From the NCBI GenBank assembly GCA_016201765.1, contig JACQCE010000048.1, forward strand, positions 1-53,616: a DNA stretch of 53,616 bases. The letters run 5' to 3'. A model generated the notes under the pieces. That model did not search any database, was not told where the DNA came from, and saw nothing but the letters and a program-made list of their open reading frames with translations. The DNA comes from Nitrospirota bacterium (GTDB lineage: Bacteria > Nitrospirota > Nitrospiria > JACQCE01). Below are positions 29,633 through 51,150 of the stretch, in pieces; position 1 is the first letter of the stretch, and every line of letters starts with the position of its first letter. A program made the translations under genes and the position numbers.

Positions 29633-29728
29633 TGCCACCGATAAGAGCGATCCCCTTGAAAAGGGGGAATTCGCAAAGCGACACGCCTACGGCCCTCACG
29701 GCACGGCGATGTGGTTGCCGAAGTGGCA
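29633..29728 (+). ncRNA. GEMM-I (cyclic-di-GMP-I family) riboswitch, A20/C92 variant (cGAMP-type)
   Basis: P1 TGCCAC/GTGGCA; GC-GA-TCCCCTT-GAAA-AGGGGGA-ATT-CGC-AAAGC P2 and junction; GCCTACGGCC..GGCACGGC receptor-like P3; 3' GGTTGCCGAA. Aligns by eye with Vc2 and Geobacter GEMM-I aptamers. Confidence 0.8.
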
Positions 29729-29826
29729 CACCAGGGAGTCCGCAAATGTTGCGGCTCCGCGACCAGTCACCCTGTGATTGGACACGGAAGACGGCCGGAG
29801 ACGGCGTCTTGCGAACGGTGTGCGGC

Positions 29827-30513
29827 ATGGAGCAGCCAGCGCCTCAAAGACACAGAGCACTCGTGCACCCATTCCTGTCCGGCCGCGCCAGTGGTGCGCG
29901 TTCCGGCCAGGCAGGCTTCACGCTGATCGAGCTGGTGATCATCATCGTCATTATCGGCATTCTGGCTATTGTCGCTATTCCTCGCTTCAATTACAGCGGT
30001 CCGCAGGTGTCGGCGACGTCCAGAAAATTGATCGGGGACCTTCGATACGCGCAGGCACGCGCCGTCGCCACGCAGGTCCCGCACGGCGTGACCTTCGCCG
30101 CCTGCGCCGGGGGCGCGGCTGGTTGCACCCAATATCGGCTCTTTTTCAACTGCGCCGGAATTCAGAATAACTCCAATTGCGCCCCGGCCGAACTGGCCGC
30201 GTTCACCGGATTCGCTGTGACGGCGGATCCCCTTGGACAATATTATCTGGAGAAAGATCCATTGAGCGGTCAGGATTTCTCCATGCAGATGATCGGCCCC
30301 CATGACGGGGTGCTGCTCGATACGACGCTGGCGGAGCAGACCATTCAATTCAACGCGACGGGCAGGCCCTGCGGGGGGTGGGGCGCCGGTTGTGTCGCGC
30401 TGGCGCTGCTCCCGTCGCCGACCAATACCATCGATGTCCACAAGGATATGGCGTGCGAGCAGATGTCGGTCACGGTGGCCACGGGGCTGGTGGATTGGCG
30501 GGACCAATGTTGA
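29827..30513 (+). CDS. Minor pilin (MshC/FimT/GspH-like)
   Basis: QAG/FTLIELVIIIVIIGILAIVAIPRF, DLRYAQARAV, IQFNATGRP; Cys-rich. Confidence 0.85.
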   Translation: MEQPAPQRHRALVHPFLSGRASGARSGQAGFTLIELVIIIVIIGILAIVAIPRFNYSGPQVSATSRKLIGDLRYAQARAVATQVPHGVTFAACAGGAAGCTQYRLFFNCAGIQNNSNCAPAELAAFTGFAVTADPLGQYYLEKDPLSGQDFSMQMIGPHDGVLLDTTLAEQTIQFNATGRPCGGWGAGCVALALLPSPTNTIDVHKDMACEQMSVTVATGLVDWRDQC

Positions 30514-31175
30514 TGAGGGCGGTCGCCACGGCGTCCGCGAGCCGCAGGGGGCGGACGGGACCTTTCCTCCGCAATCAACGGGGCGTGACGCTGGTCGAGC
30601 TGGTGATTCTGCTGGTGATCGCCGCCATCGCGCTTCCCACGCTGATGATCTATTTCATCCAAACGATGAATCACACCGCCGAGGCGCAGATGGGCACGGT
30701 GGGCTTGGGGCTGGCGCAGGAATTGATGGAGGAGGTCAGGGCGAAGCGCTGGGACGAGAATGTCCCGATTCCCAACGGCGTTCCAACGGGCGCGAATGCG
30801 CTCGGCCCCGAGGCAGGTGAAAGCCGCTGCGACCCGGCGGCGCCGATGTGCACTTCCTATGACGATATCGACGATTACAATTTCCCTGATGCGGCGCCCA
30901 ACAGCGGGATTACTGATCCGCACGGAAATCCTTTGCCGGCCTACGCGGGGTACCTGTACCGGGTGAAGGTCTGCTACGTCAATGGGCCGCAATCCGTCGG
31001 CGACGGGGGCGACAATGCGAATGGGGGCGCCTGTGTGGCGGGCGCCACCGACTACAAAAAAATCACGGTCACGGTGATGTGGGGCGAGTGCGCGGACAGC
31101 GCGTCTCCCCGATGCGGGCGGATGCAACTGGACACGGTCATGGCCAACTACCATCTCGATCAATCGTCATCATGA
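30513..31175 (+). CDS. Minor pilin (MshD/PilV-like)
   Basis: QRG/VTLVELV, AQELMEEVRAKRWDEN, LGPEAGESR, YDDIDDYN, YKKITVTV; TGATG coupling. Confidence 0.85.
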   Translation: MRAVATASASRRGRTGPFLRNQRGVTLVELVILLVIAAIALPTLMIYFIQTMNHTAEAQMGTVGLGLAQELMEEVRAKRWDENVPIPNGVPTGANALGPEAGESRCDPAAPMCTSYDDIDDYNFPDAAPNSGITDPHGNPLPAYAGYLYRVKVCYVNGPQSVGDGGDNANGGACVAGATDYKKITVTVMWGECADSASPRCGRMQLDTVMANYHLDQSSS

Positions 31176-32131
31176 ACAGGCGAATAATCATCAACCGCCG
31201 CGGCATCACGCTGCTGGAGATCATCCTGGTGATGGTGATCATGGGCATCCTGGCCGGGATTATTGTGGTGCCGGTGATCACGGGGGCGAAAGCCTGGAGC
31301 GACATGACCCGCCAGAATGAGGTTTCGCAACAGGCCCGGATCGGACTGGACCGGTTTGTGCGCGAGGCGCGCGCGATTCGGCGGGTCAACGGGCGGCCGT
31401 CGCTCATGGTGAACTGGACCGAAGGCGTCACGCCGGTGGCGATCGGGCCGAACCGGATCCGGTTTATCACATCGAGCGGCGAGGACCTGGAGTACAGCTG
31501 GGCGGGCGCGGGGCAGCCGTTGATCCGCACCGACTGGACGACCGGCGTCGCCGTGACCGACCCCGCCGCCATAAACGTGCAAAATTTCTCCCTGGCCTAT
31601 TATGAAGATTCCAACGCGTCGATCGTCCAGATGCGCCAGGAGGCCGAGGACGCGCCGGTGGCGTGCACCCCCGATGTCTGCGCCGACACCGTGCAGGGCG
31701 CCGATGTCGTGCTGGCGGTCAACGGCGCGACCCTGGCCTACCAGTTCACCGGCACGCGGATTGCCTGGATCGGCCCGAAGGATGTCGGCCTCGGGACGGC
31801 GGAGGTCTGGATTTCCGATACCGTTCCGGACGTCATCGCCAATCCCGCCACCACGGACCCGGCGACCGCGATCGTCGTTCAAAACTCGAGTGCGGCCACT
31901 CCCGCCACGGCGCTCTTTGTCAGCGGCCCGCTGCCCTACGGTGCGCACTGGATTGCCATCGCCTGTCGAAGCCCGCTGAATGCCGATTGTTCGGTAACGC
32001 CGGTCAAGGCGGATGCGTTGGATTTGCTGGTCAACCGCGTGGTGGTCGACCTGACGGTCGGGGAGGGGGCGTGCAACGCCAACCTGTGCACCACCCTGCG
32101 CGACCAGATCTCATTCCGGTCCGTGCAATGA
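31172..32131 (+). CDS. Minor pilin (MshO/PilW-like) with inserted jelly-roll-like segment
   Basis: RRG/ITLLEIILVMVIMGIL, ARIGLDRFVREAR; ATGA overlap. Confidence 0.82.
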   Translation: MNRRIIINRRGITLLEIILVMVIMGILAGIIVVPVITGAKAWSDMTRQNEVSQQARIGLDRFVREARAIRRVNGRPSLMVNWTEGVTPVAIGPNRIRFITSSGEDLEYSWAGAGQPLIRTDWTTGVAVTDPAAINVQNFSLAYYEDSNASIVQMRQEAEDAPVACTPDVCADTVQGADVVLAVNGATLAYQFTGTRIAWIGPKDVGLGTAEVWISDTVPDVIANPATTDPATAIVVQNSSAATPATALFVSGPLPYGAHWIAIACRSPLNADCSVTPVKADALDLLVNRVVVDLTVGEGACNANLCTTLRDQISFRSVQ

Positions 32132-33537
32132 TCAGGGCAATGATCAAGACGAGGATGACGACGAACCGACTCTCACAGGAGCGTGGCATCTCGGTGATAT
32201 TCGTGGTGATCGCCATGCTGCTCCTTGCGCTGCTCGGCAGCGTCATGGTCTCCGTCATGATCAGCGGGCGCTTCGCGGGGGTCGACCAGATGCAGGCGGC
32301 GTCGGCCCAGTATCTGGCGGAGGCCGGCCTGGACCGGGCGCTGCACTATTTTTTCGACGAGCAGCAGAGCTGCACCACCGATCCGAACGTCTTTCATGTG
32401 GCGCTGGGCAACGGCCATTACACCGTGGCGACGGAGTCGTTCGCCCCCGCGGCGCTCGCGTTGGACGCGGCGATCACCGCGGAGGATGAAAGCTTCACGG
32501 TCAATTTGAACGGGGCGGCCGACCTGAAGGCCGCCGGCTACGCCAACCCCTACGGCATCGTGGTGATCGGGTCGGAGATCATCGAATGCGCGCAGGTGGC
32601 CGGCAACACGTTTTCATTGTGCAAGCGGGGTGTGGGGGGATCGACGGCGACCGCCCACGCCGCCACGACGAGCAAGGTCCTCCAGGATTTTTGCATTGTC
32701 AATGCGATCGGCACCGCCACCGCCGCGCAGGCCGGCAACGCCCAGCGGGTGGTCTCAATCGGTTTTTCCCAATTTGATCGCGGTTGGGCCGTCGGCGATC
32801 AGGGCACGATGCTCCAATGGAGCGGCGTCGCATGGGAGCCGGTGGACTCGATGACCGGCCGGACTCTTCGGGTGGTCAAGCTGACCTCGCTCGGCGGCGG
32901 CTGGGCCATGGGCGATTCGGGCGTGATGGGGCAGTGGGACGGCACCGCGTGGCAGAAACGGCGATCGGCCTACATGTACTTCTCCGCCAACGGCGGCGAA
33001 GCGATTGGGCTGCTCGACACCGATCCGCATGAAGTCGGTCAAACGGCCCGGGTGCTCTCCCTCCCGATTCCAGGAGGCGGAGTCAGGGAGATGGCAACCA
33101 TGCCGAATGGGAAATATCTCTATGTGACGCGGGGCGCCGGCCACAACGATGTGGTGGTGATCGATCCGAGCGCCTGCCGGGCCGGTGATCTGCCGGACCG
33201 GCCCCGGCCCAGGCGCCTGCGGGACGACGGAGACCGCTCCGGCGAACGACTACGTGGAGGCCACGTTCACTCTGACCGATACGGCGAATCCCGCCAATTG
33301 CCCGAATCCCGTGCCGCGGTACATTGGCTTGAACTGGAACGGGAGCAAGGCCTTTGTCACCACCGGATCATCCGGCTGTGTGAAGTCGGTCACCCTGACC
33401 AGCGGATTTTCCCCCCCCAACCCGACCGTCGTCGGCATCAATACGGGCGATGCCGATCTCTGGGGCATCGCCATTCACCCCGGCGGCTCTTACGCCTACG
33501 TCGCCGGCCGGGCGACCAAGAAGGTGTATCTGATTGA
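32128..33537 (+). CDS. PilX/MshP-like pilin-fused adhesin, N-terminal part (reading frame lost near 33175-33190)
   Basis: ERG/ISVIFVVIAM (no E5), AQYLAEAGL, GWAVGDQG propeller repeats; translation turns into Arg/Pro-rich junk after IDPSACR. Confidence 0.75.
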   Translation: MIRAMIKTRMTTNRLSQERGISVIFVVIAMLLLALLGSVMVSVMISGRFAGVDQMQAASAQYLAEAGLDRALHYFFDEQQSCTTDPNVFHVALGNGHYTVATESFAPAALALDAAITAEDESFTVNLNGAADLKAAGYANPYGIVVIGSEIIECAQVAGNTFSLCKRGVGGSTATAHAATTSKVLQDFCIVNAIGTATAAQAGNAQRVVSIGFSQFDRGWAVGDQGTMLQWSGVAWEPVDSMTGRTLRVVKLTSLGGGWAMGDSGVMGQWDGTAWQKRRSAYMYFSANGGEAIGLLDTDPHEVGQTARVLSLPIPGGGVREMATMPNGKYLYVTRGAGHNDVVVIDPSACRAGDLPDRPRPRRLRDDGDRSGERLRGGHVHSDRYGESRQLPESRAAVHWLELEREQGLCHHRIIRLCEVGHPDQRIFPPQPDRRRHQYGRCRSLGHRHSPRRLLRLRRRPGDQEGVSD

Positions 33538-36283
33538 TTTGGGGAGCGATCAAAAGGTTGATGCCGTTCCCATCGTCGGAGGCACGCCGTGGCACGTGGG
33601 GTATACGCGGGACGGCGCGGAAGCCTATGTGAGCAAAAACGGCACGACGAAACTCCTCTCGATCAACACGTCGGGCAATACGGCCGGCCCGGAAGTGGAC
33701 CTGTCCGACGACGGGCCGACGGGCGTGGCGTTGAGCCCCGACGGGAGTGAAATGTACGTCACCAATGTGACGGCCGGACGGGTCAACGTCGTGCGCGTCC
33801 AGGACAAGTCGCTGGGGACGGCGGCGATCATCGCCGATGGCCTGGTCGCCGACAGCGACATCGTGGCGTCGGCGGACCGGAATTTCCGCGCCCTCTCGAT
33901 GCTCGGCCCGAGCGAGGGGTGGGCGGTCGGGGAGGACGGCCGGTTGTTCCATTGGGATGGGACGAACTGGGGGATCGAGCCCCTCGCGACAATGCCCGTG
34001 GTGCCGCCCCCGGGCGTGTCCTGCTCGCCAGGCAATCCGCCGTCCACGTGTGACAACGGCGACGGGACGTGGACGTCCCAGATCGAACCCGTGCAGGACG
34101 TCTATGCGCGGCTCAATGACAGCGTTCAGAATGACGGCACCCTCTGCACGCCGCCGCAGATTCTGGGGTGTACCAACGGCATCAATTACCATTCGGGAAC
34201 GTTCCTCAACCCCAACCTCTACGAGACCGGCAATGAAATCGATCGATTGGGGCTTCGCCGGGTGCGTGAAGCGCCGAATGACGCCGACCCCAGCAACAAT
34301 GCCAGCCCCAATGCCGAGGGCGATCTGACCGAGACGATCATCACGCCCAATCCGAACAAAAAACTCTTCCGGCCGTATCTGCAATTTGATCTAGGTGTGG
34401 TCAAACAATATGCGCTGTCGGTGTCAACTGCGATTCTGCAGCTCCGGGCCTACAAGGCCGAGGTGCGTCCCTCCGACACCCCGGAATTCGGCACAACCGG
34501 ATTGTTCCTGGAATATCAAAATACCAGCGATTGCATTCTGGTCTCAGGCCAATGCGTACCGCCGGCCGTTAACGATTCATCGGGCAACGGCAATTCGGGG
34601 ACGAATTACGGAGGCACCATTGAGACGACCACGGGCGGCATTGATGGACCGGCCCTTTCCTTCGATGGCAATAATGACCGGGTGATCCTGCCTTCCACGA
34701 ATGCGCTGCAGGGCATTGCCAGCGGTGTGACGGTCTCGGTGTGGGTCAATTTTACCTCGGCATCCGAACTGACCGCCGCAAGCCAGGAGCTGATCCGCAA
34801 GGGCATCAACGACGATCGGCTCAGTTTTGTGCTGCGGCTTGTCAATGGCCGGCCGGCTTTCAAGGTGCGGGTCAGTTGCGGGCTGTTGTGCTGGGTGCCG
34901 AAGGAGGCATTATCCGACGGTCCCCCGCTGCAGCTTAATCACTGGTATATGCTCAGCGGCACGTATGACGGGCAACACCTCCGGGTGTATCAAGACGGCG
35001 GCGATCCCCTCAAGGAAGTGGATGCTTCGGGAGCTCTGTTTCCTGGAAGTGCTGCAGTGTCACCAGGTCCGCCCACTCGCAAATGCGGCGGTCATACCGG
35101 CGGCCCCACCGGCATTTCCTCCGATAGCCTCTGTATCGGAGGCACCAACACAACTAGTCCTCTCGGCACGGGGAACAGTTTTGCCGGCCTGATGGATGGA
35201 ATCCGTATTTACGATACGGGTTTGTCACAGACTGACAACAACGCCTTGGCTGGCCTTGGCGACCGCTACGTTGATATCTACCGAGTGACCTCTTCCTGGC
35301 CTGTTGCCACACTGAGCGGCGCGACGCAGCCGCAAAGCTGGGGTGTTGACCAGACGAACAGTTTTGCGAAAACGATCATCAGGCAGAAGGAGATCACCGA
35401 TCCCCTCAATGTGCCGCCGGGACAGAGGTATGAATGGGATGTGACGCGGCTGGCGCAGGGGTGGGTGGATGATACCTATCATAACTATGGTCTGGTCTTG
35501 AGGATGGGACTTGATCCGAGCACGGGGGCGACGGACCCCAGTTCCAGCGGTACAGTCTGGTTCTATTCGGCCCACGCCCCGTCGCCGTACACCGGCTACC
35601 GCCCCAGGTTGACCGTCAAATACCGAGTCAGCCGCCGTCCGAATCTGGCGTCGGTGGCGATGGTCGATACCAACGGCGACAAGGTTGCCGACGATGGCTG
35701 GGCCGTCGGCCAGGGGGGGGTCATTTTTCGCTACAACAGCGGCCCCAAGACCTGGTCGTTGTGGACGCAGCTCGCCAACGGCGCGCCGACCCTCCCGACG
35801 AAGGGGTTGAACTCGGTGTCGATGCGCAGCGCCACGGAGGGGTGGGTGGTCGGCGAGGAGGGGGTGATCTACCATTTCACCGGCACGCTGGCCGGAGGCG
35901 TGGTCACCGGCTCATGGGCGAAGGATCCCTTGTCGGAAGCGGTCACCTCCTCCAATGTAAACGCCGTCTCCATCGCGCCCAACGGCGACGGCATCGCCGT
36001 CGGGGACGACGGCGTCATCCTCATGTATGATCATCTTGCCGGTTCGTGGGCGGTGGATGGCACCTCGCCCGCTCGCCTGTTGGCCGTGAAAGCTTTTTCG
36101 AAGGCCAAGGCGTGGGGCGTCGGCGAGGAGGCCACGATTATCCGGAAACGCGCCGGGAGCTGGCTGGCCACCGATGCGGAGAACGGCACAGAGGCGCCGA
36201 GTGCGACCGGCAACACCCATTTGCGCGGGATTGATATGCTGCCGGAGCAGACCACGGTGAGCGACTGGCGCGAGAACTACTGA
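33185..36283 (+). CDS. Multidomain adhesin, C-terminal part (YVTN-like propeller, DNRLRE-like, LamG, GWAVG propeller); probably one gene with 32128
   Basis: GVALSPDGSEMYVTN repeats, RPYLQFDL..WDVTRLAQGW..NYGLVL..RPRLTVKY, DSSGNGNSGT..LSFDGNND..GLMDGIRIYD, GWAVG repeats, terminal WRE; no signal peptide. Confidence 0.8.
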   Translation: MICRTGPGPGACGTTETAPANDYVEATFTLTDTANPANCPNPVPRYIGLNWNGSKAFVTTGSSGCVKSVTLTSGFSPPNPTVVGINTGDADLWGIAIHPGGSYAYVAGRATKKVYLIDLGSDQKVDAVPIVGGTPWHVGYTRDGAEAYVSKNGTTKLLSINTSGNTAGPEVDLSDDGPTGVALSPDGSEMYVTNVTAGRVNVVRVQDKSLGTAAIIADGLVADSDIVASADRNFRALSMLGPSEGWAVGEDGRLFHWDGTNWGIEPLATMPVVPPPGVSCSPGNPPSTCDNGDGTWTSQIEPVQDVYARLNDSVQNDGTLCTPPQILGCTNGINYHSGTFLNPNLYETGNEIDRLGLRRVREAPNDADPSNNASPNAEGDLTETIITPNPNKKLFRPYLQFDLGVVKQYALSVSTAILQLRAYKAEVRPSDTPEFGTTGLFLEYQNTSDCILVSGQCVPPAVNDSSGNGNSGTNYGGTIETTTGGIDGPALSFDGNNDRVILPSTNALQGIASGVTVSVWVNFTSASELTAASQELIRKGINDDRLSFVLRLVNGRPAFKVRVSCGLLCWVPKEALSDGPPLQLNHWYMLSGTYDGQHLRVYQDGGDPLKEVDASGALFPGSAAVSPGPPTRKCGGHTGGPTGISSDSLCIGGTNTTSPLGTGNSFAGLMDGIRIYDTGLSQTDNNALAGLGDRYVDIYRVTSSWPVATLSGATQPQSWGVDQTNSFAKTIIRQKEITDPLNVPPGQRYEWDVTRLAQGWVDDTYHNYGLVLRMGLDPSTGATDPSSSGTVWFYSAHAPSPYTGYRPRLTVKYRVSRRPNLASVAMVDTNGDKVADDGWAVGQGGVIFRYNSGPKTWSLWTQLANGAPTLPTKGLNSVSMRSATEGWVVGEEGVIYHFTGTLAGGVVTGSWAKDPLSEAVTSSNVNAVSIAPNGDGIAVGDDGVILMYDHLAGSWAVDGTSPARLLAVKAFSKAKAWGVGEEATIIRKRAGSWLATDAENGTEAPSATGNTHLRGIDMLPEQTTVSDWRENY

Positions 36284-42304: not shown

Positions 42305-45046
42305 ATGATCGGCACCCTGATCAAAAAAGTCGTCGGCACGAAAAACGACCGGGAACTGAAGCGGCTCTGGCCGATCGTGGCGAAGGTCAACGCGTTCGAG
42401 CCCGCCGTGGCCGCGCTCGATGACGAGACGCTGACGGTGAGGACTGACGACTTCCGCCGGCGCTTGGCCGGCGGGGAGTCGGTCGACGCCGTGTTGCCCG
42501 AAGCCTTTGCCGTGGTGCGCGAGACGGCCAAGCGGCGGTTGGGGATGCGCCATTTCGATGTCCAGCTGCTGGGCGGCGTGGTGCTGCACGAAGGCAAAAT
42601 CTCCGAGATGAAGACCGGCGAAGGGAAGACGCTGGTCGCCACGCTTCCCCTCTATCTGAATGCGCTCACCGGCCGGGGCTGCCATCTGATCACCGTCAAC
42701 GATTACCTGGCCAAGCGCGACGCCCAGTGGATGGGGCCCGTCTATCACGCGCTGGGGCTGTCCGTCGGTGTAATCCAGCACGACGCCTCGTTCCTGTTTG
42801 ATCCCTCCTATGAGGCCTCGGACCGCCGGATGCAGTCGTTGCGGCCGGTGACCCGGCGGGAGGCCTACGCGGCCGACCTCACCTACGGCACCAACAACGA
42901 GTTCGGATTCGATTATCTGCGGGACAACATGGTGGTGGAACAGGCGCAATGCGTGCAGCGCGATCTGCATTATGCCATTGTGGACGAAGTGGACAGCATC
43001 CTGATTGACGAGGCGCGCACGCCGCTGATCATTTCCGGCCCCGCCGAGGAATCCACGGACCTCTACTATCGCGTGGACAAGATCATCCCGTACCTGAAGG
43101 CCGTGACCGATTACACCATCGAGGAGAAGACCAAAACCGTGGCGCTGACCGAGGAGGGCAACGCGAAGGTGGAGCGCCTGCTCGGGGTCGACAATTTGTA
43201 TGACATGGCCAACATGAGTCTGGTGCATCACGTGGGGCAGGCGTTGAGGGCGCACGCGCTCTACCACCGGGACGTCGAATATGTCGTCAAGGACGGACAG
43301 GTCATCATTGTGGATGAGTTCACCGGCCGGCTGATGCCGGGGCGCCGCTGGAGCGACGGCCTGCACCAGGCGGTCGAAGCCAAGGAAGGCGTCAAGATCG
43401 CCAGCGAGAACCAGACGCTGGCCACGATCACCTTCCAGAATTATTTCAGACTCTATGACAAATTGGCCGGCATGACCGGCACGGCCGACACCGAAGCGGC
43501 GGAGTTCAGCAAGATTTACTCGCTGGATGTCGTGGTGGCGCCGACGCACCGCGTGATGAGCCGGGTGGACTATCCCGACGTGGTCTACCGGACCGAGCGG
43601 GAAAAGTTCGAAGCGATCGTTGAGGAGATCATTGAGCTGCATGCCAAGGGACAACCGGCTCTCGTCGGGACGATCTCCATCGAAAAGTCCGAGCGATTGA
43701 GCGCGATGTTGAAACGGCGCGGCGTCGAACACTCCGTCCTGAACGCCAAGTATCATGAGAAAGAGGCCGAGATCATCGCGCAGGCCGGCCGCAAGAACGC
43801 CGTCACGATTGCGACCAACATGGCGGGCCGCGGCACCGATATCCTGCTGGGAGGCAACCCGGATTTCCTGGTCAAGCGCGAGATGCAGAAACAGGAGGAG
43901 TGGGCGCCGGCCGACCTGCAGCGGCTCACCGAACGGATCAAGGCGGAGACGGAGCGGGAGAAACAGGACGTGGTCGCGGCGGGCGGTCTGCACATCCTGG
44001 GCACGGAACGGCACGAAAGCCGGCGGATCGACAATCAATTGCGCGGTCGTTCCGGCCGGCAGGGCGATCCCGGTTCATCGAGGTTTTATCTCTCCCTGGA
44101 AGACGATCTGATGCGGATTTTCGGCAGTGAGCGTCTTTCCGGGTTGATGCAGCGGCTGGGGATGGAGGAAGGGGTCCCGATCGAACACCGGTGGGTCACC
44201 CGGTCGATCGAAGGCGCCCAGAAAAAAGTGGAAGCCCATAATTTCGAAATCCGGAAACAGTTGCTTGAATATGACGACGTCATGAACAAGCAGCGCGAGG
44301 TCGTCTATGAGCGCCGGAAGGAAATTCTCCGGGGCGAATCGGTCGTGGACACGATTCAGGAGATGATTGAGGAGCGGCTGGACGGGTTGTTGCCGCTCTA
44401 CTGCTCCGAAGAGCAGCACGCGGAGGAGTGGGACCTGAAGGGGCTGGCCGAGGCGCTGCATCAGCAGTTTGCGCTGGAGGCCGATGAGCCGTGGTTGCGG
44501 TCGCTTCAAGGCCCCGACGCCCTGCGGTCGGAGCTGCTGCATCGCATTCGGGAAGGGTATCATCGGCGGGAGGCGGAGTTCGGGGAGTTGATGATCCGGC
44601 AGGTCGAACGGATGGTGATGCTTCGCGTCATGGACGCCCTCTGGAAGGATCATCTGCTGTCGATGGATTATTTGAAGGAGGGGATCGGCTTGCGGGGATA
44701 CGGCCAACGGGATCCGCTGGTTGAATACAAGCGCGAGGGATTTGATCTGTTCGCCGACATGATGGGGCGCGTCCAAAGCGAGGTCATCGCCCATCTGATG
44801 CGGGTGCAGCCGGTGCCGCAGGCGGTTCCGTCCGCCTCGCCGGGCCCGGCGGCCGGCTCACCGGTTTCCCCCTTGGCGTCCACCCCAGGACGCTCGCCCC
44901 GGCTGGTCTTTCATCGGGGCGACGCGGGACAGGAGGCCGCATCGGCGGCGCCCGCGCATCGGGACGCGGACAAGGTCGGACGCAATGACCCCTGTCCCTG
45001 CGGCAGCGGGAAGAAATACAAAAAATGTCATGGGAGCAGCGCCTAG
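42305..45046 (+). CDS. secA: Protein translocase subunit SecA
   Basis: [55 protein letters not shown] motif [19 protein letters not shown]. Confidence 0.99.
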
Positions 45047-45062
45047 GGCGGACCGGCGGATC

Positions 45063-46235
45063 ATGGGGGCGAGACACACGACCAAAAAATCCGGAGGGCA
45101 CACGCCGAATCATCCGAAGGCGGCGCCCGCGTCGGACAGGCTCCAGGCGCTGATCACGGAGAATCGCGAGCTCAAAACGGGGCTCCGTTACCGGACCAAG
45201 GAGCTCAGTTTCTTCCTGAGCCTGGCCAAGGCGCTGACCTCGACCCTGGAACTCAAGAAGGTGCTCAAGGTCATCATGGCCCGCGCGCAGCAGTTGATCA
45301 AGGCCGAGGCCTGGGCGCTGCTGCTGGTGGATGAGCCGGCCAACGAACTCTATTTCGACCTGATCCACTCCAAGCACGAAAAGGCCCTCAAATCGCAGCG
45401 CATCAAACCGGGCCAGGGCCCGGCGGGATGGGTCGTCCGGTACAACAAGCCGCTCCTGGTGCCCGATCTTGCCAAGGACGGCCGGTTTTCCAGCGGCCTC
45501 GACCTGCAACTTGGTTCGCCGTCACGATCGTTGATCGGCGTGCCGATCGTGAACAAGAAACGGACGATCGGCGTCCTGGAGGCCGTCAATAAAACGGGTG
45601 ACGGGCCGTTTGACGAACAGGATCTGGCGCTCCTGGTGAAGCTGGTCGATCAGGCCGAGATCGCCATCGAGCGCGCCTATCTGTATCAGAAGATGGCCGA
45701 CCTCGCGGTCACCGATGATCTGACGAAGCTCTTCAATTTCCGGTATCTCGACCAGACGCTCGACATCGAACTCCGCCGGGGACAGCGCTACGGCGCGAAT
45801 GTGTCGTTGATCTTCCTGGACATGGATTACTTCAAGCAGGTCAACGACCGGTACGGCCATCTGATGGGCAGCCGCGTGCTGATCGAGGTGGCGCAGATCC
45901 TGATCCAGAATCTGCGCGACGTCGACATCATCGCCCGGTACGGCGGGGATGAGTTTGTGGTGGTCCTGCCCGAGACGCCCCTCGATGTCACCTACCGGAT
46001 CGCCCAACGGCTTCGCGTGGCATTGCGCGAGCACATGTTCCTCGAGGCGGAGGGCCATCCGGTCAAACTCACGGCCAGCTACGGGATCGCGAGTTACCCG
46101 ACGCACGCGCGCAATAAGAAGGATCTGATCCGTCTGGCCGATCAGGCGATGTACCGGGCGAAGAACAGCGGCCGTGACCAGATCTGCCTGGCTGAACATC
46201 CGGCGACCAAGCCGTCCCCCTCCGCGGCGGGCTAG
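45063..46235 (+). CDS. GAF-GGDEF dinucleotide cyclase with Hypr (cGAMP synthase) signature
   Basis: GAF domain; DDLTKLFNFRY, DMDYFKQVNDRYGHLMGS (Ser replacing the conserved Asp), RDVD I-site, RYGGDEF, ADQAMYRAK. Confidence 0.9.
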   Translation: MGARHTTKKSGGHTPNHPKAAPASDRLQALITENRELKTGLRYRTKELSFFLSLAKALTSTLELKKVLKVIMARAQQLIKAEAWALLLVDEPANELYFDLIHSKHEKALKSQRIKPGQGPAGWVVRYNKPLLVPDLAKDGRFSSGLDLQLGSPSRSLIGVPIVNKKRTIGVLEAVNKTGDGPFDEQDLALLVKLVDQAEIAIERAYLYQKMADLAVTDDLTKLFNFRYLDQTLDIELRRGQRYGANVSLIFLDMDYFKQVNDRYGHLMGSRVLIEVAQILIQNLRDVDIIARYGGDEFVVVLPETPLDVTYRIAQRLRVALREHMFLEAEGHPVKLTASYGIASYPTHARNKKDLIRLADQAMYRAKNSGRDQICLAEHPATKPSPSAAG

Positions 46236-47437
46236 CCCAGCGCTCGGTTCATTCTCGAAAGTCCTTCCCCCAATTCATCCGGGGACAAGACCAGCGGCGG
46301 CGCCAGCCGCACCACGCGGTCCTCATGCAAGGTCCAGCCGAGCAGCAGGCCGGCGTCGCGGCACCGACGGACGAATCGTTCGCAGTGTGCCGGCGTGTCA
46401 AACTCCATCCCGATCAACAACCCCAGCCCTCGAACCGTCATCAGCCCGCCGCGACCGCACAACCCGGCGATCCCGTCCATCAGTCGTCGCCCCGCTTGGG
46501 CTGCCGCCTGCTCGAGCCGTTGATCGATCATGACCCGCAGCGCCGCCAGGCCGGCGGCGCAGGAGAGCGGATGGCCGCCGAACGTCGTGAGGTGACTCAA
46601 GGGGGGATCATGGGAGAGCGCGGCCATCACGTCGGGCCGGCCGAGAAAGCCGCCGAGCGGCAGCCCGCCGCCCATCGCCTTGGCCAGGATCAGCATGTCG
46701 GGCGTGACGCCCCAATGCTCGACGGCAAACCGCCGGCCGGTCCGGCCGAAGCCGGTGACGACCTCGTCCATCAACAGCAACGCGCCCGCGGCGGTGCAAC
46801 GCGCGCGGACCGCCTTGAGAAATTCATCCGAGGGGAGGCGAACGCCGCCTTCGGCCTGGATCGGTTCCATGATGACGGCGGCAACCTGCTCGTTGATTCC
46901 ATCAGGGCCGCCCAGCGCGTCCGGCTCGTTCCACGGGAGAAAGCGCGCCATCGGCACCAGCGGTTCATACGGCTTGCGCAGCTCCGGCCGTCCCATCACC
47001 GACATCGCGCCGAACGTGTCGCCGTGGTAGCTCCGGTCGAACGCCACGAACACCGACCGGCCGGTGAATTTTCTCGCCGCTTTGAGCGCGCCCTCCACCG
47101 CTTCGGCCCCGCTGTTGGTGAAATAGGTGACCGACAGGGGAGGCGGGGCGATGGACGCGAGCTGCGCGGCCAGCTCGATCTGCGGCGCCTGCAGATATTC
47201 GCCGTAGACCATGACGTGCAGATAGTGGTCGAGCTGCTCCCGGATGGCGGCGAGGACGGCGGGATGGCGGTGGCCGACGTTCGCCACGCCGATCCCGGAA
47301 ATAAAATCGAGATGCCGGCGGCCGGTCGTGTCGGTGATCGTGCACCCCTCGGCCGACGCCACCTCGAGCCCGATCGGTTCGGTCGACGTCTGGCAGAGGT
47401 GCGTTAGAAAGAGGTGGCGGAGTTTGTTTGAGTCCAT
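46232..47437 (-). CDS. Class III PLP aminotransferase (ArgD/OAT family)
   Basis: DFISGIGV..GH, NSGAEAVEGA, YHGDT, EPIQAEGG, DEVVTGFGRTG, AKAMGGG, TTFGGHP. Confidence 0.92.
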   Translation of the reverse strand: MDSNKLRHLFLTHLCQTSTEPIGLEVASAEGCTITDTTGRRHLDFISGIGVANVGHRHPAVLAAIREQLDHYLHVMVYGEYLQAPQIELAAQLASIAPPPLSVTYFTNSGAEAVEGALKAARKFTGRSVFVAFDRSYHGDTFGAMSVMGRPELRKPYEPLVPMARFLPWNEPDALGGPDGINEQVAAVIMEPIQAEGGVRLPSDEFLKAVRARCTAAGALLLMDEVVTGFGRTGRRFAVEHWGVTPDMLILAKAMGGGLPLGGFLGRPDVMAALSHDPPLSHLTTFGGHPLSCAAGLAALRVMIDQRLEQAAAQAGRRLMDGIAGLCGRGGLMTVRGLGLLIGMEFDTPAHCERFVRRCRDAGLLLGWTLHEDRVVRLAPPLVLSPDELGEGLSRMNRALG

Positions 47438-48792
47438 GTGGTGAGTTTGAAGAGCAACCCCTGATCGAGCAGCCGCCAGCGCAGCGGCGGTTCCTGCATC
47501 GTGCCGATTGGTGTGAGGCGGCTGGGGCCGAGGTGACTGATCGATGGGCGCAGCGCAGCCAGCCGTTCATCGGACAGCGCCGCGCCGATTGATTCGATCC
47601 GTCCCCGCCAGGGCGTCAGCGCGTCGAGCGCCGTGTCCATGCTTGCGGCGGGTTTCACCCACAGCGTCCTGTAGCCCGGCGAGGGGCGGGGAGCGGGATC
47701 GGGATCGTAGAGGACCGTGCCGCCGGCCAGTCGGCTGATTGACGGGGATGGCGTGAAGAAGTCCGCTCCGGTTGTCGCTCGAAACTCCACGTCTGCGCGG
47801 AGCTGCAGAATGGCCGAGGCGGCCTCGATGGGAACAGCCGCCGGCGGCCACTGGTGTGCCTGGCGTCCCAGCGCCGCGGCCATCTGTTTTGCGAACAGTC
47901 GAGGAGTGATCGGGCCGCCCTCTTCAACGTACACCAGGTGCGGGGACAGGCAGCCCTGCTGTTCATACCAGCAGACGTCACGTGCCAGCGAGGCGGCCAG
48001 AGCGTCGGCGTCGGTCAGCGCCTCGGCGCCGATCAACGCCACACTCCATCGGTGGCCGTCGCCGATGATCCGGGGCGTATGCCGGGATAGTTCGATGATC
48101 GTGTCATCCTCACCGGAGGCCACCACCACGTCAACGGCGGCCCCGACGGCGGCGGTGATCGCGCCGGCTTCCCGCGGCCACCAGGCGACGGCCAACAGTC
48201 CGCCGATCCGAGGGTCAATCTCGGCCAGCGTGCGCACAAAGAGCGCAGGGGTGATCGGATCGCGGATCGACGGCCTGATGAGACCGGCCGACCTGGCGAG
48301 GAGCAGCCCGGTGATGTCATCGATGGCCAGCCCGGGGATGTGGCCGGCCACAACCACCAGGGCGACCGGCGGCCCCTGCCGGATCCGATCCTGTCGGGCC
48401 AGCCGGTTGTCGGCATCATCGATCAACCGCGCCAGCCGTTCGGGCGTCAGTTGGGCCAGCCGGTGATCGAGTCCCTCTTCGATCATCCGGGGGGCATAGC
48501 CGGTCAACGTCGGAAGAATCGAGAGAGCCTGACGGCGGGCGGGATGATCCGGATGGCGCCAGTGTTTGGCCGCCTCGGCGAGCAGAGTGATCGTCTGCTC
48601 ATCAGTCAGTTGCGGCATCACTGACGTGTGAGCCGACCGCAGCCGCTCCACCACCGCGCGGTAGAATGGCGCACCTTCATCGGGCAGCTCGACCGCAACG
48701 GGTCCGCATGGCACGGTGCGGACGGCGGACGGCGTCATCGTCGCCGGCAGGTGGAACGCCTGCAAGGCCGCGAGTTGACGGACGGCTGTCAT
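47404..48792 (-). CDS. LuxC-like acyl-CoA/acyl-protein reductase
   Basis: ALDH-like fold: VAGHIP, ASGEDDTI, DVCWYEQQGCLSP with the catalytic Cys, IGTMQEP. Confidence 0.8.
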   Translation of the reverse strand: MTAVRQLAALQAFHLPATMTPSAVRTVPCGPVAVELPDEGAPFYRAVVERLRSAHTSVMPQLTDEQTITLLAEAAKHWRHPDHPARRQALSILPTLTGYAPRMIEEGLDHRLAQLTPERLARLIDDADNRLARQDRIRQGPPVALVVVAGHIPGLAIDDITGLLLARSAGLIRPSIRDPITPALFVRTLAEIDPRIGGLLAVAWWPREAGAITAAVGAAVDVVVASGEDDTIIELSRHTPRIIGDGHRWSVALIGAEALTDADALAASLARDVCWYEQQGCLSPHLVYVEEGGPITPRLFAKQMAAALGRQAHQWPPAAVPIEAASAILQLRADVEFRATTGADFFTPSPSISRLAGGTVLYDPDPAPRPSPGYRTLWVKPAASMDTALDALTPWRGRIESIGAALSDERLAALRPSISHLGPSRLTPIGTMQEPPLRWRLLDQGLLFKLTTWTQTNSATSF

Positions 48793-49955
48793 GCCGATGC
48801 GGGGAGCGGCAGCAGGGAGGCGGAAGCGTCAAGTGAGCAACCGCGCAGCTCCGCGCCGGCGACCCGTCCCAGGAGATGAAATCCATCGATGACGCCCGGC
48901 GGTTTCATGCCGAGATCGTCTGTCTGAACGGCCATGACCGAATGAAGGTTGGCCGGATCGTAGTGGCACAGCAACCCGGGTTGGCCGGGCGGCACGTCAT
49001 CGCCCGTGGCGGGATCGATCACGCGCACCCTGACCCAGGGCGGAATGGTGTAGAGGCCGATGGGCTTGGGGTATGGGGGCATCGGAGGACGGGGTAACGC
49101 TTCCGCACGGGCCCCCATATAGAATTGACAACTGAGTTCGGTCATCCCGTATTCATTGATGACGGCATGAGCGGGCAGGCCAAGGAACCGCTCACAGGTG
49201 GCCAGGAAGAGTTCCCGATGATCGATGGCGTCCAGTGAGACGGTCTGCAGTCCGTCGATGCCCTTCCGTCCACCGGTGTCCATTAACCGGCTGCCGAAAG
49301 GCAGCGTGATGCGCCACCCCCGCGCGGCAGACTGTTCAAACCAGCGCACGAACGCGGCTGTCGTGCCGATGAGCGCCACAGGTTGTCCCTCAGCGACGGC
49401 GCGATCGAGCGCCGCTGTGAGCACCGTGCCATCCAGGCCGTCGGATTGGCCCAGATAACGGCTGTCCGGCGCGCCCCAGCGTTGCATGAACAGGTCGATC
49501 ATGTGGATCAACGACGAATTCTGCCGTTGCGAGGGAGGCGGCGTCAGCGACAGGATCAGGAGCCGGCGGCCGCTGGAGAGCGGCAGATCCGGGAAGAGGT
49601 GCGCCTGTGCACTGGCGACGATGGCCGCGTGAGCCGGCGCCAGATCGGCGATCAGGTGTCGGCCGCGCCGCTCCGTTCCTTGCGTGGTGCCGCTGGTCAG
49701 AAACACGGTCGACGGTCGTTCGGGAGAACAGGTCAGGTCGGCGACCTTGAAAGCCGACGTCGGCACGGCCGGAATCCGCCGCCAATCAGTGATCTGGTCC
49801 GGCTTGAGCCCACGCCGGTCGCAGAAGAGCCGATAGGGACGGTTCTTCGCATACTGGTAGGCGAACACCTCCAGCGCAAGCAGGTCGAAACGCGTAGGAT
49901 CGGCGCGTTCAATCATGTCGAGCAGTCTGGATTCGAGCGATGCGACGGATGGCAT
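48789..49955 (-). CDS. LuxE-like acyl-protein synthetase
   Basis: FAYQY..N..YR, IPAVPTSAFK, TSGTT, DTGGRKG, EYGMTELSCQ, TDDLG, GRVAGAELRGCS. Confidence 0.85.
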   Translation of the reverse strand: MPSVASLESRLLDMIERADPTRFDLLALEVFAYQYAKNRPYRLFCDRRGLKPDQITDWRRIPAVPTSAFKVADLTCSPERPSTVFLTSGTTQGTERRGRHLIADLAPAHAAIVASAQAHLFPDLPLSSGRRLLILSLTPPPSQRQNSSLIHMIDLFMQRWGAPDSRYLGQSDGLDGTVLTAALDRAVAEGQPVALIGTTAAFVRWFEQSAARGWRITLPFGSRLMDTGGRKGIDGLQTVSLDAIDHRELFLATCERFLGLPAHAVINEYGMTELSCQFYMGARAEALPRPPMPPYPKPIGLYTIPPWVRVRVIDPATGDDVPPGQPGLLCHYDPANLHSVMAVQTDDLGMKPPGVIDGFHLLGRVAGAELRGCSLDASASLLPLPASA

Positions 49956-49977
49956 GGCGCCTCGTGGGGAGGGCCGG

Positions 49978-51150
49978 TCAGCCCAGCCGAAGCGGTTCCT
50001 GAACCGTCCGGGCCGATTCGGCGTCGGCCCGACGCTGTTCGCCGCGCTCGATGGCCGGGGCCGGCGCGTCATGCGCGGCCCCCTGACCGGCCAATGTCAA
50101 CTTGTCCGTGAAATGATCCAGTTGCCGGCTTGCCTCCTGGTATTTGCTCCCGGCGTTGGTCAGATGCGTGCCCATGGTGTCGAAGAGGCCGCAGAATTTG
50201 TTGAGGTCGCTCTTGAGCGCATCCAACTGGGTCATGATCTCCCGGGCGCTCTTTTCCACCTGGAGTCCTCGTAAACCCCACAAGATCACCTGCAGGTAGG
50301 CGTAGAGGCTGTTCGGCGAGACGGGGATGACCCGTCGGGAGAGCGCATAGGCGGAGAGCTGTTTGTCAGCGGTCGCCGCTTCATCCTTGATGATCATTTC
50401 GTAGTAGACGTTTTCAGCCGGGATGTACATCATGGCGAAATCAAACGTCCCTTCATCCGGGACGATATATTTCTCCGCGATGGCGTCGATGTGTTTTTTG
50501 ACGTCCGAAGCAAACTGCTTGCGGGCTTTCTTCCCCTCCTCATCGGACGGGGCGTCGATGATCCGTTTGAAGTTCTCCAGCGGAAACTTGGCGTCGATCG
50601 GCACCAGCCCCTGGCTGAACCGGATGGCCGCGTCGACCGCTTCGCCGCTTTTGAACCGGTGCTGCAGCGAGACGTAGGAGGGCGGAAGGAGCTGGAGCAG
50701 CAGATCGTTCAGAAAGAGCTCGCCCATCTGGCCCCGCAGCTTCGGCGCCTTGAGAATCTTCTGCAGATCGGCGATCTCCTTGCCGACGTCCTGGACCTGT
50801 TTGGTGGCTTCAGCGAGCGACCCGAGCCGGTCGCGCACGTCGCCGAAGACCTTGGTGCTGTGGTCGAGGCGGTTCCCGATCTGGCCGGTGGCTTCCTGGA
50901 GTTGTTTGCCGACGGTCGTCAACTGCTGGTTGACGTGCGTCGTCAACTGGCCCAGTTGTTGATTGACGAGTTGGGTCTGGTTGGTGAAACTTTCCTGTAA
51001 TTGCGCCCGCAGGGCGTCGACCTGCTGCTGCATGAGGTGCATCCCGGTATCGGGCGGCGCGGCGGCGGGACGTCGGAGAGTCAGCACACCGACGATGATC
51101 AGGCCGACGAGCAGGAGGACGAGGAGCGCAACGATCAGCGATTCCATCAC
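49978..51150 (-). CDS. rmuC: DNA recombination protein RmuC
   Basis: N-terminal TM, coiled coil, RGQMGE, PIDAKFP, IAEKYI, DFAMMYIPAENVY. Confidence 0.92.
   Translation of the reverse strand: MMESLIVALLVLLLVGLIIVGVLTLRRPAAAPPDTGMHLMQQQVDALRAQLQESFTNQTQLVNQQLGQLTTHVNQQLTTVGKQLQEATGQIGNRLDHSTKVFGDVRDRLGSLAEATKQVQDVGKEIADLQKILKAPKLRGQMGELFLNDLLLQLLPPSYVSLQHRFKSGEAVDAAIRFSQGLVPIDAKFPLENFKRIIDAPSDEEGKKARKQFASDVKKHIDAIAEKYIVPDEGTFDFAMMYIPAENVYYEMIIKDEAATADKQLSAYALSRRVIPVSPNSLYAYLQVILWGLRGLQVEKSAREIMTQLDALKSDLNKFCGLFDTMGTHLTNAGSKYQEASRQLDHFTDKLTLAGQGAAHDAPAPAIERGEQRRADAESARTVQEPLRLG

Follow-up and report, generated by a model that had tools for sequence, protein, structure and literature searches.

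The stretch of DNA analysed here (the window) comprises 53,616 nucleotides (nt) of contig JACQCE010000048.1 from the Nitrospirota bacterium assembly GCA_016201765.1, and the feature under study is a gene for a GAF-GGDEF protein that directly follows secA (Table 1). A preliminary description of this gene had proposed that the encoded protein carries the Asp-to-Ser specificity switch of the Hypr GGDEF enzymes, which would permit use of ATP and synthesis of 3',3'-cGAMP (cyclic GMP-AMP). The open reading frame (ORF) contained no internal stop and encoded 390 amino acids (aa). A longer in-frame ORF, beginning at 44985, runs into secA; we kept the start at 45063 because the nearest homologues, at 387–394 aa, fit the 390-aa form and span 94–100% of it. 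Since secA ends at 45046 and the ATG lies at 45063, the gap between them is 16 nt, the spacing given in the preliminary description. A promoter and terminator scan around the cyclase gene called no plus-strand site between secA and the cyclase, and the two genes are probably co-transcribed; no RNA data set was listed for the window.

The GGDEF domain match spanned the full PF00990 profile (1–161), and the generic GGDEF model TIGR00254 scored 176 bits against a cut-off of 37.4. NCBIfam holds no model for the Hypr class, and its generic GGDEF model was the only one to pass the cut-off on the window cyclase. An AlphaFold model of the protein had a mean predicted local distance difference test score (pLDDT) of 86.5, with values above 90 in the GGDEF domain, and ordered the chain as a basic disordered tail (residues 1–22), a helix (23–60), the GAF domain, a second helix (185–216) and the GGDEF domain. 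This layout suggests that the N-terminal helix may have a role in dimerization, and that the protein may form a parallel dimer whose helices pass the state of the GAF domain to the catalytic dimer. The best full-length fold match found by Foldseek was the GAF-GGDEF protein 4zmu. Both the model and the Foldseek search returned generic GAF-GGDEF or GGDEF matches, and neither separated Hypr from canonical enzymes.

Table 1. Features of the cyclase gene, its surroundings and related loci. Plain positions are those of the window; names before a colon are contigs of the same genome (C) or contigs of other genomes (G, C).
Feature	Position	Strand	Basis or context
GAF-GGDEF gene, 390 aa, candidate GMP-AMP cyclase (Hypr GGDEF, GacB-like)	45063..46235	+	motifs, Pfam, homology
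Long N-terminal helix, residues 23-60 (after basic disordered tail, residues 1-22)	45129..45242	+	AlphaFold model
GAF sensor domain, residues 64-202	45252..45668	+	Pfam PF01590, E 4.5e-21
GGDEF catalytic domain, residues 215-373	45705..46181	+	Pfam PF00990, E 8.2e-49
Phe226 codon, cross-dimer site (GmGacA Tyr304; Arg in diguanylate cyclases)	45738..45740	+	structure alignment
Asn261 codon (start of NDRYGHLMGS), equivalent of GacA Asn339	45843..45845	+	alignment to 6d9m
Ser270 codon AGC, Hypr specificity position (Ser348 in GmGacA)	45870..45872	+	alignment, conservation
RDVD, residues 285-288, RxxD inhibitory (I-) site	45915..45926	+	motif position
GGDEF motif, residues 294-298; central Asp296, general base Glu297	45942..45956	+	motif position
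secA (913-aa ORF, zinc-finger tail)	42305..45046	+	directly upstream of cyclase gene
Spacer from secA to ATG, 16 nt	45047..45062	+	read from sequence
GEMM-I-like element, A20	29636..29722	+	RF01051, 29.1 bits vs 35, E 0.00096
Three consecutive pilin-like ORFs (N-terminal methylation motif)	29899..32131	+	Pfam PF07963
GEMM-I riboswitch, A20	C86:45853-45937		45.6 bits; downstream 517-aa Rec-GAF-HD-GYP gene
GEMM-I riboswitch, A20	C94:696-781		64.1 bits; downstream single-domain receiver gene
GEMM-I riboswitch, A20	C5:6984-7068		57.6 bits; downstream 1216-aa protein, weak PQQ/beta-propeller matches
GEMM-I riboswitch, G20	C94:3627-3712		downstream VTT/DedA, UPF0114 and transglycosylase genes
GEMM-I riboswitch, G20	C89:6674-6759		downstream stretch of small ORFs
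Neighbouring cyclase and HD-GYP-like genes	G182:C59:61174-65054
Neighbouring cyclase and HD-GYP-like genes	G045:C29:89803-96486
Neighbouring cyclase and HD-GYP-like genes	G074:C51:4137-10605
Neighbouring cyclase and HD-GYP-like genes	G068:C7:40026-46756

The signature residues were read from HMMER alignments of the window cyclase to GacA (6d9m) and PleD (1w25). Ser270, which ends the motif NDRYGHLMGS (residues 261–270), lies under the Ser of GacA ('ghlvgs') and the Asp of PleD ('ghdigd'), a position that we take to be Asp344 of PleD, and the Ser noted in the preliminary description is confirmed. Its reading of NFR (residues 225–227) in place of the usual NRR also held, with Phe226 under the Tyr of GacA ('nyry') and the Arg of PleD ('nrry'), and the GGDEF motif, the Mg-binding Asp (DMD, residues 253–255) and the RxxD I-site (RDVD) were intact as described. 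Work on GacA attributes its specificity to Ser348, which can pair with either purine, to Asn339 on the sugar face of the base and to a cross-dimer residue other than Arg, Tyr304 (PMC6456294). The accompanying 'Goldilocks' model holds that the Ser needs the central Asp of GGDEF beside it rather than GGEEF, and Glu375 is described as the general base acting across the dimer (PMC6456294). All of these determinants were matched in the window cyclase (S270, N261, D296, E297 and F226), and N261, D253, D255 and E297, aligned to 6d9m, were invariant in a 42-row alignment.

Among solved structures, the best match to the window cyclase was the Hypr GGDEF domain of GmGacA, 6d9m (E 1e-47, 166.4 bits), with about 78 of 158 residues identical (~49%, a hand count from the alignment midline). 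PleD scored lower (E 1.6e-33, 119.7 bits), and all remaining solved diguanylate cyclases in the PDB search scored below PleD. A scan of named genomes provided a locus from Corallococcus interemptor for comparison. Two Ser-type proteins were observed in this Corallococcus genome: P0305 (366 aa, GAF-GGDEF, with Ser, GGDEF and a cross-dimer Ala), 42% identical to the window cyclase over 352 aa with a single 1-residue gap, and P0304 (Rec-GGDEY), 44% identical over 184 aa in the GGDEF domain. P0305 and P0304 are presumably the orthologues of GacB and GacA, because GacB is called conserved in Corallococcus in a preprint (10.1101/600031). A quick maximum-likelihood tree built from 82 GGDEF domains placed every one of the 48 Ser rows on the opposite side from the 23 Asp rows, which comprised 12 domains of the own genome, 7 of Corallococcus and 4 representatives. 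The Hypr assignment of the preliminary description stands on this evidence, as the signature residues are present, the GacA Hypr domain is the nearest solved structure and the protein sits with the Ser-type domains in the tree.

We found the specificity position to be strictly conserved among close relatives. The best 120 homologues all carried the Ser and the RxxD site, and 119 of them the GGDEF motif, while the cross-dimer residue was F (95), L (8), Y (5), T (4), S (3), M (2) or one each of G, E and I, and never Arg; every named homologue in this set was from Nitrospirota or Nitrospiria. An exhaustive scan of 1.84 billion representatives gave, among its best 150 matches, 54 proteins shorter than 620 aa, of which 40 were Ser-type; the other 14 had Asp (4), Arg (2), Gly (2) or Asn (1) or gave no pattern match (5). 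Many of the Ser-type representatives were ~460–490 aa long, with an extra N-terminal region of ~110 aa before GAF-GGDEF that scored as a receiver in some. The own genome (metagenome-assembled, 1.96 Mb, 121 contigs, 85.6% complete) contained 13 GGDEF domains, 12 with Asp and one, that of the window cyclase, with Ser. On sequence evidence, the window cyclase belongs to the Hypr clade as one of its conserved members, and a chance substitution is excluded.

Of 40 relatives from the same class, 31 genomes contained a full-length orthologue (E ≤1e-100, at least 46% identity), and at E 1e-100 none was found in the six genomes of family f3 or the two of family f11 among these 40. We took 30 orthologue loci, one of which was cut by a contig end, leaving 29 that were readable (the own locus and 28 from relatives). 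Every one of the 29 had the Ser, the GGDEF motif, the RxxD site and a cross-dimer F, Y or L. In 27 of them a SecA zinc-finger tail precedes the cyclase gene on the same strand, and the remaining two begin near a contig end. The phylum survey added 150 genomes filtered at a completeness of at least 90%. Many families contained strong matches, and all 32 strong matches sampled (14 families) were Ser/GGDEF with a cross-dimer residue other than Arg, while two sampled weak matches from family f17 were Asp/NRR. No cyclase match was found in the 25 genomes of f3, and all seven GGDEF domains of two near-complete f3 genomes were Asp-type. Judged by these residues and by gene order, the window cyclase represents a phylum-wide, secA-linked clade of Ser-type proteins.

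Two departures were observed within this distribution. In seven orthologue loci (families f2 and f4) the SecA tail and the cyclase motif lay ~800 nt further apart than elsewhere, which suggests an inserted ORF or an extended N-terminus. Genome G031 (82% complete) was dropped as an orthologue carrier, as it held only a 34%-identical paralogue and a contig-end fragment; the fragment matched the final 83 domain residues at 59% identity, and its Ser position lies beyond the contig.

A cGAMP-producing lineage would be expected to contain a receptor for the signal, and GEMM-I riboswitches (RF01051, gathering score 35 bits) were observed in the own genome. The discriminating base was read from cmscan alignments at model position 11, unpaired and 5' of the paired 'GC' preceding the AAA bulge, which we take to be the equivalent of G20 in Vc2. 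Five elements scored above the Rfam cut-off, three with A and two with G at this position, and the window itself contained one further A20 element below the threshold. The A47 and C92 equivalents were retained in the A20 elements, and three elements of the own genome scored higher on c-di-GMP-I-GGC (RF03167) despite having A rather than G at position 47. Across 41 class genomes we found 134 GEMM-I matches, of which 67 carried A, 66 G and one C at position 20; the pattern reading and the MAFFT column disagreed for none of the 134. Of the 32 orthologue-carrying genomes, 23 contained A20 elements, as did G031, while none of the eight genomes of f3 and f11 had one, their two GEMM-I matches both having G. 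Riboswitches for cGAMP carry A in place of G20, a Vc2 G20A mutant binds both ligands, and some natural A20 members are bispecific (PMC6140456).

The genes downstream of these elements were diverse (Table 1). The 1216-aa protein after the C5 element had a signal-peptide-like N-terminus when its sequence was read by eye. The C86 riboswitch precedes a Rec-GAF-HD-GYP gene (C86:46038-47591) with a canonical RIYR, and it is possible that the riboswitch ligand and this phosphodiesterase form a feedback loop. The sequence after the C86 riboswitch shows a 13-bp hairpin (9-nt loop) followed by a T-rich tail; a terminator scan 3' of the riboswitch called no site. The sub-threshold element of the window lies ahead of three pilin-like ORFs, with PF07963 matches in the open frames 29656-30513, 30378-31175 and 31079-32131 (E 9.9e-07, 3.9e-04 and 5.4e-05, respectively). 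Elements with 5' halves near-identical to that of the window element scored 49.9 bits in G001, 47.7 in G002 and 36.3 in G006, and a second G006 copy scored 34.9 bits, just under the cut-off. We regard the window element as a candidate effector of the same signal. The gene next after the pilin-like ORFs encodes a 1032-aa LamG/BNR-like protein (window 29899-36283).

Other observations concern the surroundings of the G20 elements and of the cyclase gene. The small ORFs following the C89 element resemble toxin-antitoxin pairs by eye (region C89:6600-9500). Three convergent ORFs (401, 462 and 427 aa) occupy the minus strand of the window from 46232 to 50072 with short overlaps between successive ones, and the first of these shares 4 nt with the end of the cyclase gene, at its stop codon.

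Degradation would form the third part of a cGAMP pathway. In two cGAMP-selective HD-GYP enzymes, the fourth position of the Rxx(K/R) motif is reported to have lost its basic residue, with Gln there in PmxA and Asn in Bd2325 (10.1101/600031). Seven HD-GYP domains were observed in the own genome, six with R or K at the fourth position and one with N. The latter belongs to a 478-aa protein (contig C62:265-1701, minus strand; PF13487 73.2 bits against a cut-off of 27.2) whose RVYN aligned to the RPYK of PmGH (4mcw). Orthologues of this protein were found in 37 of 40 relatives. In the 32 class-level genomes outside f3 (31 full cyclase carriers and G031) the fourth residue was N in 24, S in seven and T in one, while in f3 it was R in all 14 orthologues read (six of six class-level and eight of eight further genomes; nine more f3 matches were left out). 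Other classes had N (f13, f16 and f20), Q within the motif RVYQ (f18; G047 and G056), or S or A (f14, f15, f24, f25, f28, f30, f31 and f32), the f14 orthologues reading S, S and A in three of four genomes (G072 was left out). The cyclase and HD-GYP-like genes lay 1.5–4.3 kb apart in four genomes, three from f16 and one from f31 (Table 1).

The three parts varied together in one family. Genomes of f3 had neither the cyclase orthologue nor an A20 riboswitch (six genomes scanned), and their HD-GYP protein had RxxR. As the non-basic residue and the cyclase both occur on either side of f3 in the phylum, this pattern suggests that f3 lost the pathway and that its HD-GYP residue reverted to Arg, with the polarity of the change deduced from that distribution. 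We also considered f14 as a second, independent contrast, as four of its genomes (G072, G066, G043 and G052) lacked a full-length match at E ≤1e-60. It was rejected because a domain search found in each of the four a divergent Ser/GGDEF protein with NDR, that is, with a cross-dimer Asp, in frames of 393–402 aa.

For the input domain, the closest solved GAF was 5w10 (E 2.1e-23), which we take to be the cyclic AMP (cAMP)-bound GAF of Lcd1, followed by the GAF domains of PDE5, PDE10, PDE2 and CyaB2; these nearest relatives are thus GAFs of the cyclic-nucleotide type, from phosphodiesterases and cyclases. No match to PF00211, PF00027 or PF01928 was found in the own genome at its 85.6% completeness, none of the four genomes of its genus had PF00211, and PF00211 was missing from 18 of 33 genomes counted as orthologue carriers (the 32 and G031), several of them 95–99% complete. 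In Myxococcus GacB (MXAN_2643), cAMP acts on the GAF domain as an activator, with a half-maximal effective concentration of ~79 nM, and c-di-GMP inhibits the enzyme at its I-site (10.1101/600031). We did not transfer this activation to the window cyclase, because no adenylate cyclase was found in the own genome and no PF00211 match in many near-complete carriers. The analogy with GacB was dropped on finding no class III cyclase, CYTH or cyclic nucleotide (cNMP)-binding domain in the own genome, and cAMP as input is doubtful.

We propose that the window cyclase is likely a homodimeric GAF-GGDEF Hypr enzyme, the Nitrospirota counterpart of myxobacterial GacB, and that its major product is probably cGAMP. 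The proposal rests directly on sequence signatures, on conservation, on the placement of the protein in its family and on co-occurrence in genomes; the product, the ligand, riboswitch selectivity and phosphodiesterase activity are what we infer. In the proposed mechanism each monomer would bind one purine nucleoside triphosphate (NTP), and Asp296 would hold Mg and base close enough together for an enzyme with Ser. Phe226 would stack on the base in the partner half-site without the guanine preference of Arg, and Glu297 would deprotonate the 3'-OH across the dimer. From these roles of Asp296, Phe226 and Glu297 it would follow that the dimer joins ATP and GTP into 3',3'-cGAMP and makes some c-di-GMP besides. 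On ligand binding, the dimer geometry would be set by the GAF domain together with its flanking long helices, and c-di-GMP would inhibit the enzyme through the RxxD site. The A20 GEMM-I riboswitches ahead of the Rec-GAF-HD-GYP, receiver and secreted beta-propeller genes and the pilin-like operon would read the cGAMP, and the conserved HD-GYP-like protein with RxxN would degrade it.

Several observations weigh against this proposal. The branch that divides Ser from Asp rows in the tree is weak (72% in the Shimodaira-Hasegawa-like approximate likelihood ratio test, SH-aLRT), and most of the Ser rows had been selected as top matches to the query. Nine of the 32 orthologue-carrying genomes had no A20 riboswitch, and the covariation of the three parts amounts to one evolutionary contrast, that of the f3 lineage alone. 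The missing PF00211, PF00027 and PF01928 matches described above also count here. The RVYN protein reads HHLNYDLSGYP where HHExxDGxGYP is usual, and so departs from the canonical metal-site motif, as did all 38 class-level orthologues read; because of this departure its catalysis is uncertain, and we treat it as a candidate only. The S, T and A observed at the fourth position of its orthologues have no precedent among the characterised enzymes in the papers cited. At the cross-dimer position, mainly cGAMP is reported for Tyr, Ser, Ala and Gln (PMC6456294), a set from which Phe is absent; Phe226 could stack on the base as Tyr does.

The remaining points bear on the Ser itself, which the preliminary description had taken as the switch to ATP use and cGAMP. 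The residue is present, but Ser is necessary and not sufficient for the activity: a D-to-S mutant of GSU3350 remained a pure diguanylate cyclase, and the natural Ser enzymes Cabther_A1065 and Ddes1475 yield more c-di-GMP (PMC6456294). In practice the window cyclase could work as a diguanylate cyclase, or could yield both signals, as described for Bdellovibrio Bd0367 (PMC9140294, PMC9302825), with Ser270 tolerated and c-di-GMP the main or an equal product. The cross-dimer Phe, a residue outside the reported set, fits this alternative, as do the G20 riboswitches and six canonical HD-GYP proteins of the own genome. Nevertheless, Arg-bearing Hypr enzymes are the ones that yield more c-di-GMP (PMC6456294), and the c-di-GMP-leaning enzymes have a cross-dimer Arg, which all 120 homologues here lack. 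The own genome is moreover already supplied with 12 Asp-type GGDEF domains for c-di-GMP, and a phylum-wide strict Ser together with A20 riboswitches and a non-basic HD-GYP residue is hard to reconcile with c-di-GMP only. We therefore consider this alternative unlikely, though the strongest of those weighed.

A divergent, non-catalytic GGDEF domain acting as receptor or scaffold, or an enzyme making mainly c-di-AMP or another purine dinucleotide, is highly improbable. Hypr enzymes are promiscuous in vitro and take other purine NTPs (PMC6456294), and GacB given ATP alone in vitro makes c-di-AMP, but at an ATP:GTP ratio of 1:1 its c-di-AMP was undetectable (10.1101/600031). Against loss of catalysis, the Mg-binding Asp, the GGDEF motif, the general-base Glu, Asn261 and the Lys/Arg positions are invariant, and the GGDEF domain is modelled at a pLDDT above 90. 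An origin of the Ser in faulty sequencing or assembly, or in a recent neutral change confined to this fragmented and incomplete metagenome-assembled genome, is refuted, since AGC differs from GAC or GAT at two bases, contigs from four runs of one study (two of which may be the source of the window) agree at the codon with no variant listed, and the Ser recurs in all 120 homologues and all 29 orthologue loci.

Compared with characterised systems, the window cyclase most resembles Myxococcus GacB in overall form, with two domains (GAF-GGDEF), a length similar to that of P0305, the Ser, the GGDEF motif, a non-Arg cross-dimer residue and an I-site with an Arg/Asp motif. The two differ in phylum, GacB being from Myxococcota, and in the cross-dimer residue, which is Phe here and Ala in the GacB-like protein. 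The I-site is a strict RxxD in the window cyclase and RHNLD in P0305, and the window gene probably lies within the secA transcription unit, whereas the upstream ORFs in Corallococcus are divergent and Maf-like or YggS-like by eye. GacB is activated by cAMP, whereas the own genome has no detected adenylate cyclase or cNMP-binding protein. GacA (GSU1658 / Gmet_1914; 6d9m / 5VS9) is the best solved GGDEF relative and shares the Ser, Asn, GGDEF, Glu and I-site as well as an aromatic cross-dimer residue, Tyr in GacA and Phe here. GacA is a Rec-GGDEF protein, while the window cyclase has no receiver and a GAF domain as its only input; the Geobacter protein was named 'response receiver sensor diguanylate cyclase, GAF domain-containing' by the PDB depositors, and the GacA-like P0304 of Corallococcus had no Pfam GAF match. 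The preliminary description had contrasted this GAF input with the receiver of GacA; the GAF-input Hypr architecture is not new, because GacB (MXAN_2643), an already characterised GAF-GGDEF Hypr enzyme, has the same architecture.

The candidate receptors and phosphodiesterase also have known counterparts. The A20 elements resemble the Geobacter GEMM-Ib riboswitches (e.g. Gs1761) in their GEMM-I fold, the A in place of G20 and the A47 and C92 equivalents. Genes downstream of Geobacter GEMM-Ib elements encode cytochromes and pili, whereas here they encode Rec-GAF-HD-GYP, receiver, secreted beta-propeller and pilin-like proteins. The HD-GYP-like protein shares with PmxA (RxxQ) and Bd2325 (RxxN) the HD-GYP domain and a non-basic fourth residue (RVYN here, RVYQ in f18). 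It differs from them in its HHLNYDLSGYP motif and in its N-terminus, which had no Cache, HAMP or transmembrane match in Pfam.

What the present analysis would add is a phylum-wide clade, candidates for two further expected parts of the pathway, and their joint absence or reversal in one family. Taken further, these parts may represent an old and complete Nitrospirota Hypr-cGAMP pathway, with a secA-linked synthase, A20 riboswitches that control pilin-like, secreted and signalling genes and a divergent HD-GYP-like enzyme with RxxN/S/T/A/Q. Its parts would evolve as a unit, the large-genome f3 having neither synthase nor A20 riboswitches and, in its HD-GYP protein, the Arg of the c-di-GMP type. 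The GAF domain would then sense something other than cAMP, and the position next to secA would tie cGAMP to export or cell-surface remodelling. We offer this wider reading tentatively, as plausible but somewhat short of probable. The literature searched contained no link of Hypr or cGAMP signalling to Nitrospirota, although earlier censuses of Hypr enzymes and A20 riboswitches and their supplements may list members; 'Nitrospir' does not occur in the main texts of PMC6456294 and 10.1101/600031.

Public records and NCBI family models name the protein a 'sensor domain-containing diguanylate cyclase', which would place it in c-di-GMP signalling. If cGAMP is made, about half of the GEMM-I riboswitches of this group would be mis-assigned, and the comparison of f3 with the other families would offer a natural test of the specificity rules for Ser or Asp in the cyclase, A or G at position 20 of the riboswitch and N or R in the phosphodiesterase. 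With no detectable adenylate cyclase, the ligand of the GAF domain becomes a directly testable question. Nitrospirota are widespread in groundwater and other habitats, and a pathway linked until now chiefly with Geobacter, myxobacteria and Bdellovibrio would, if cGAMP is the product, extend across much of this phylum.

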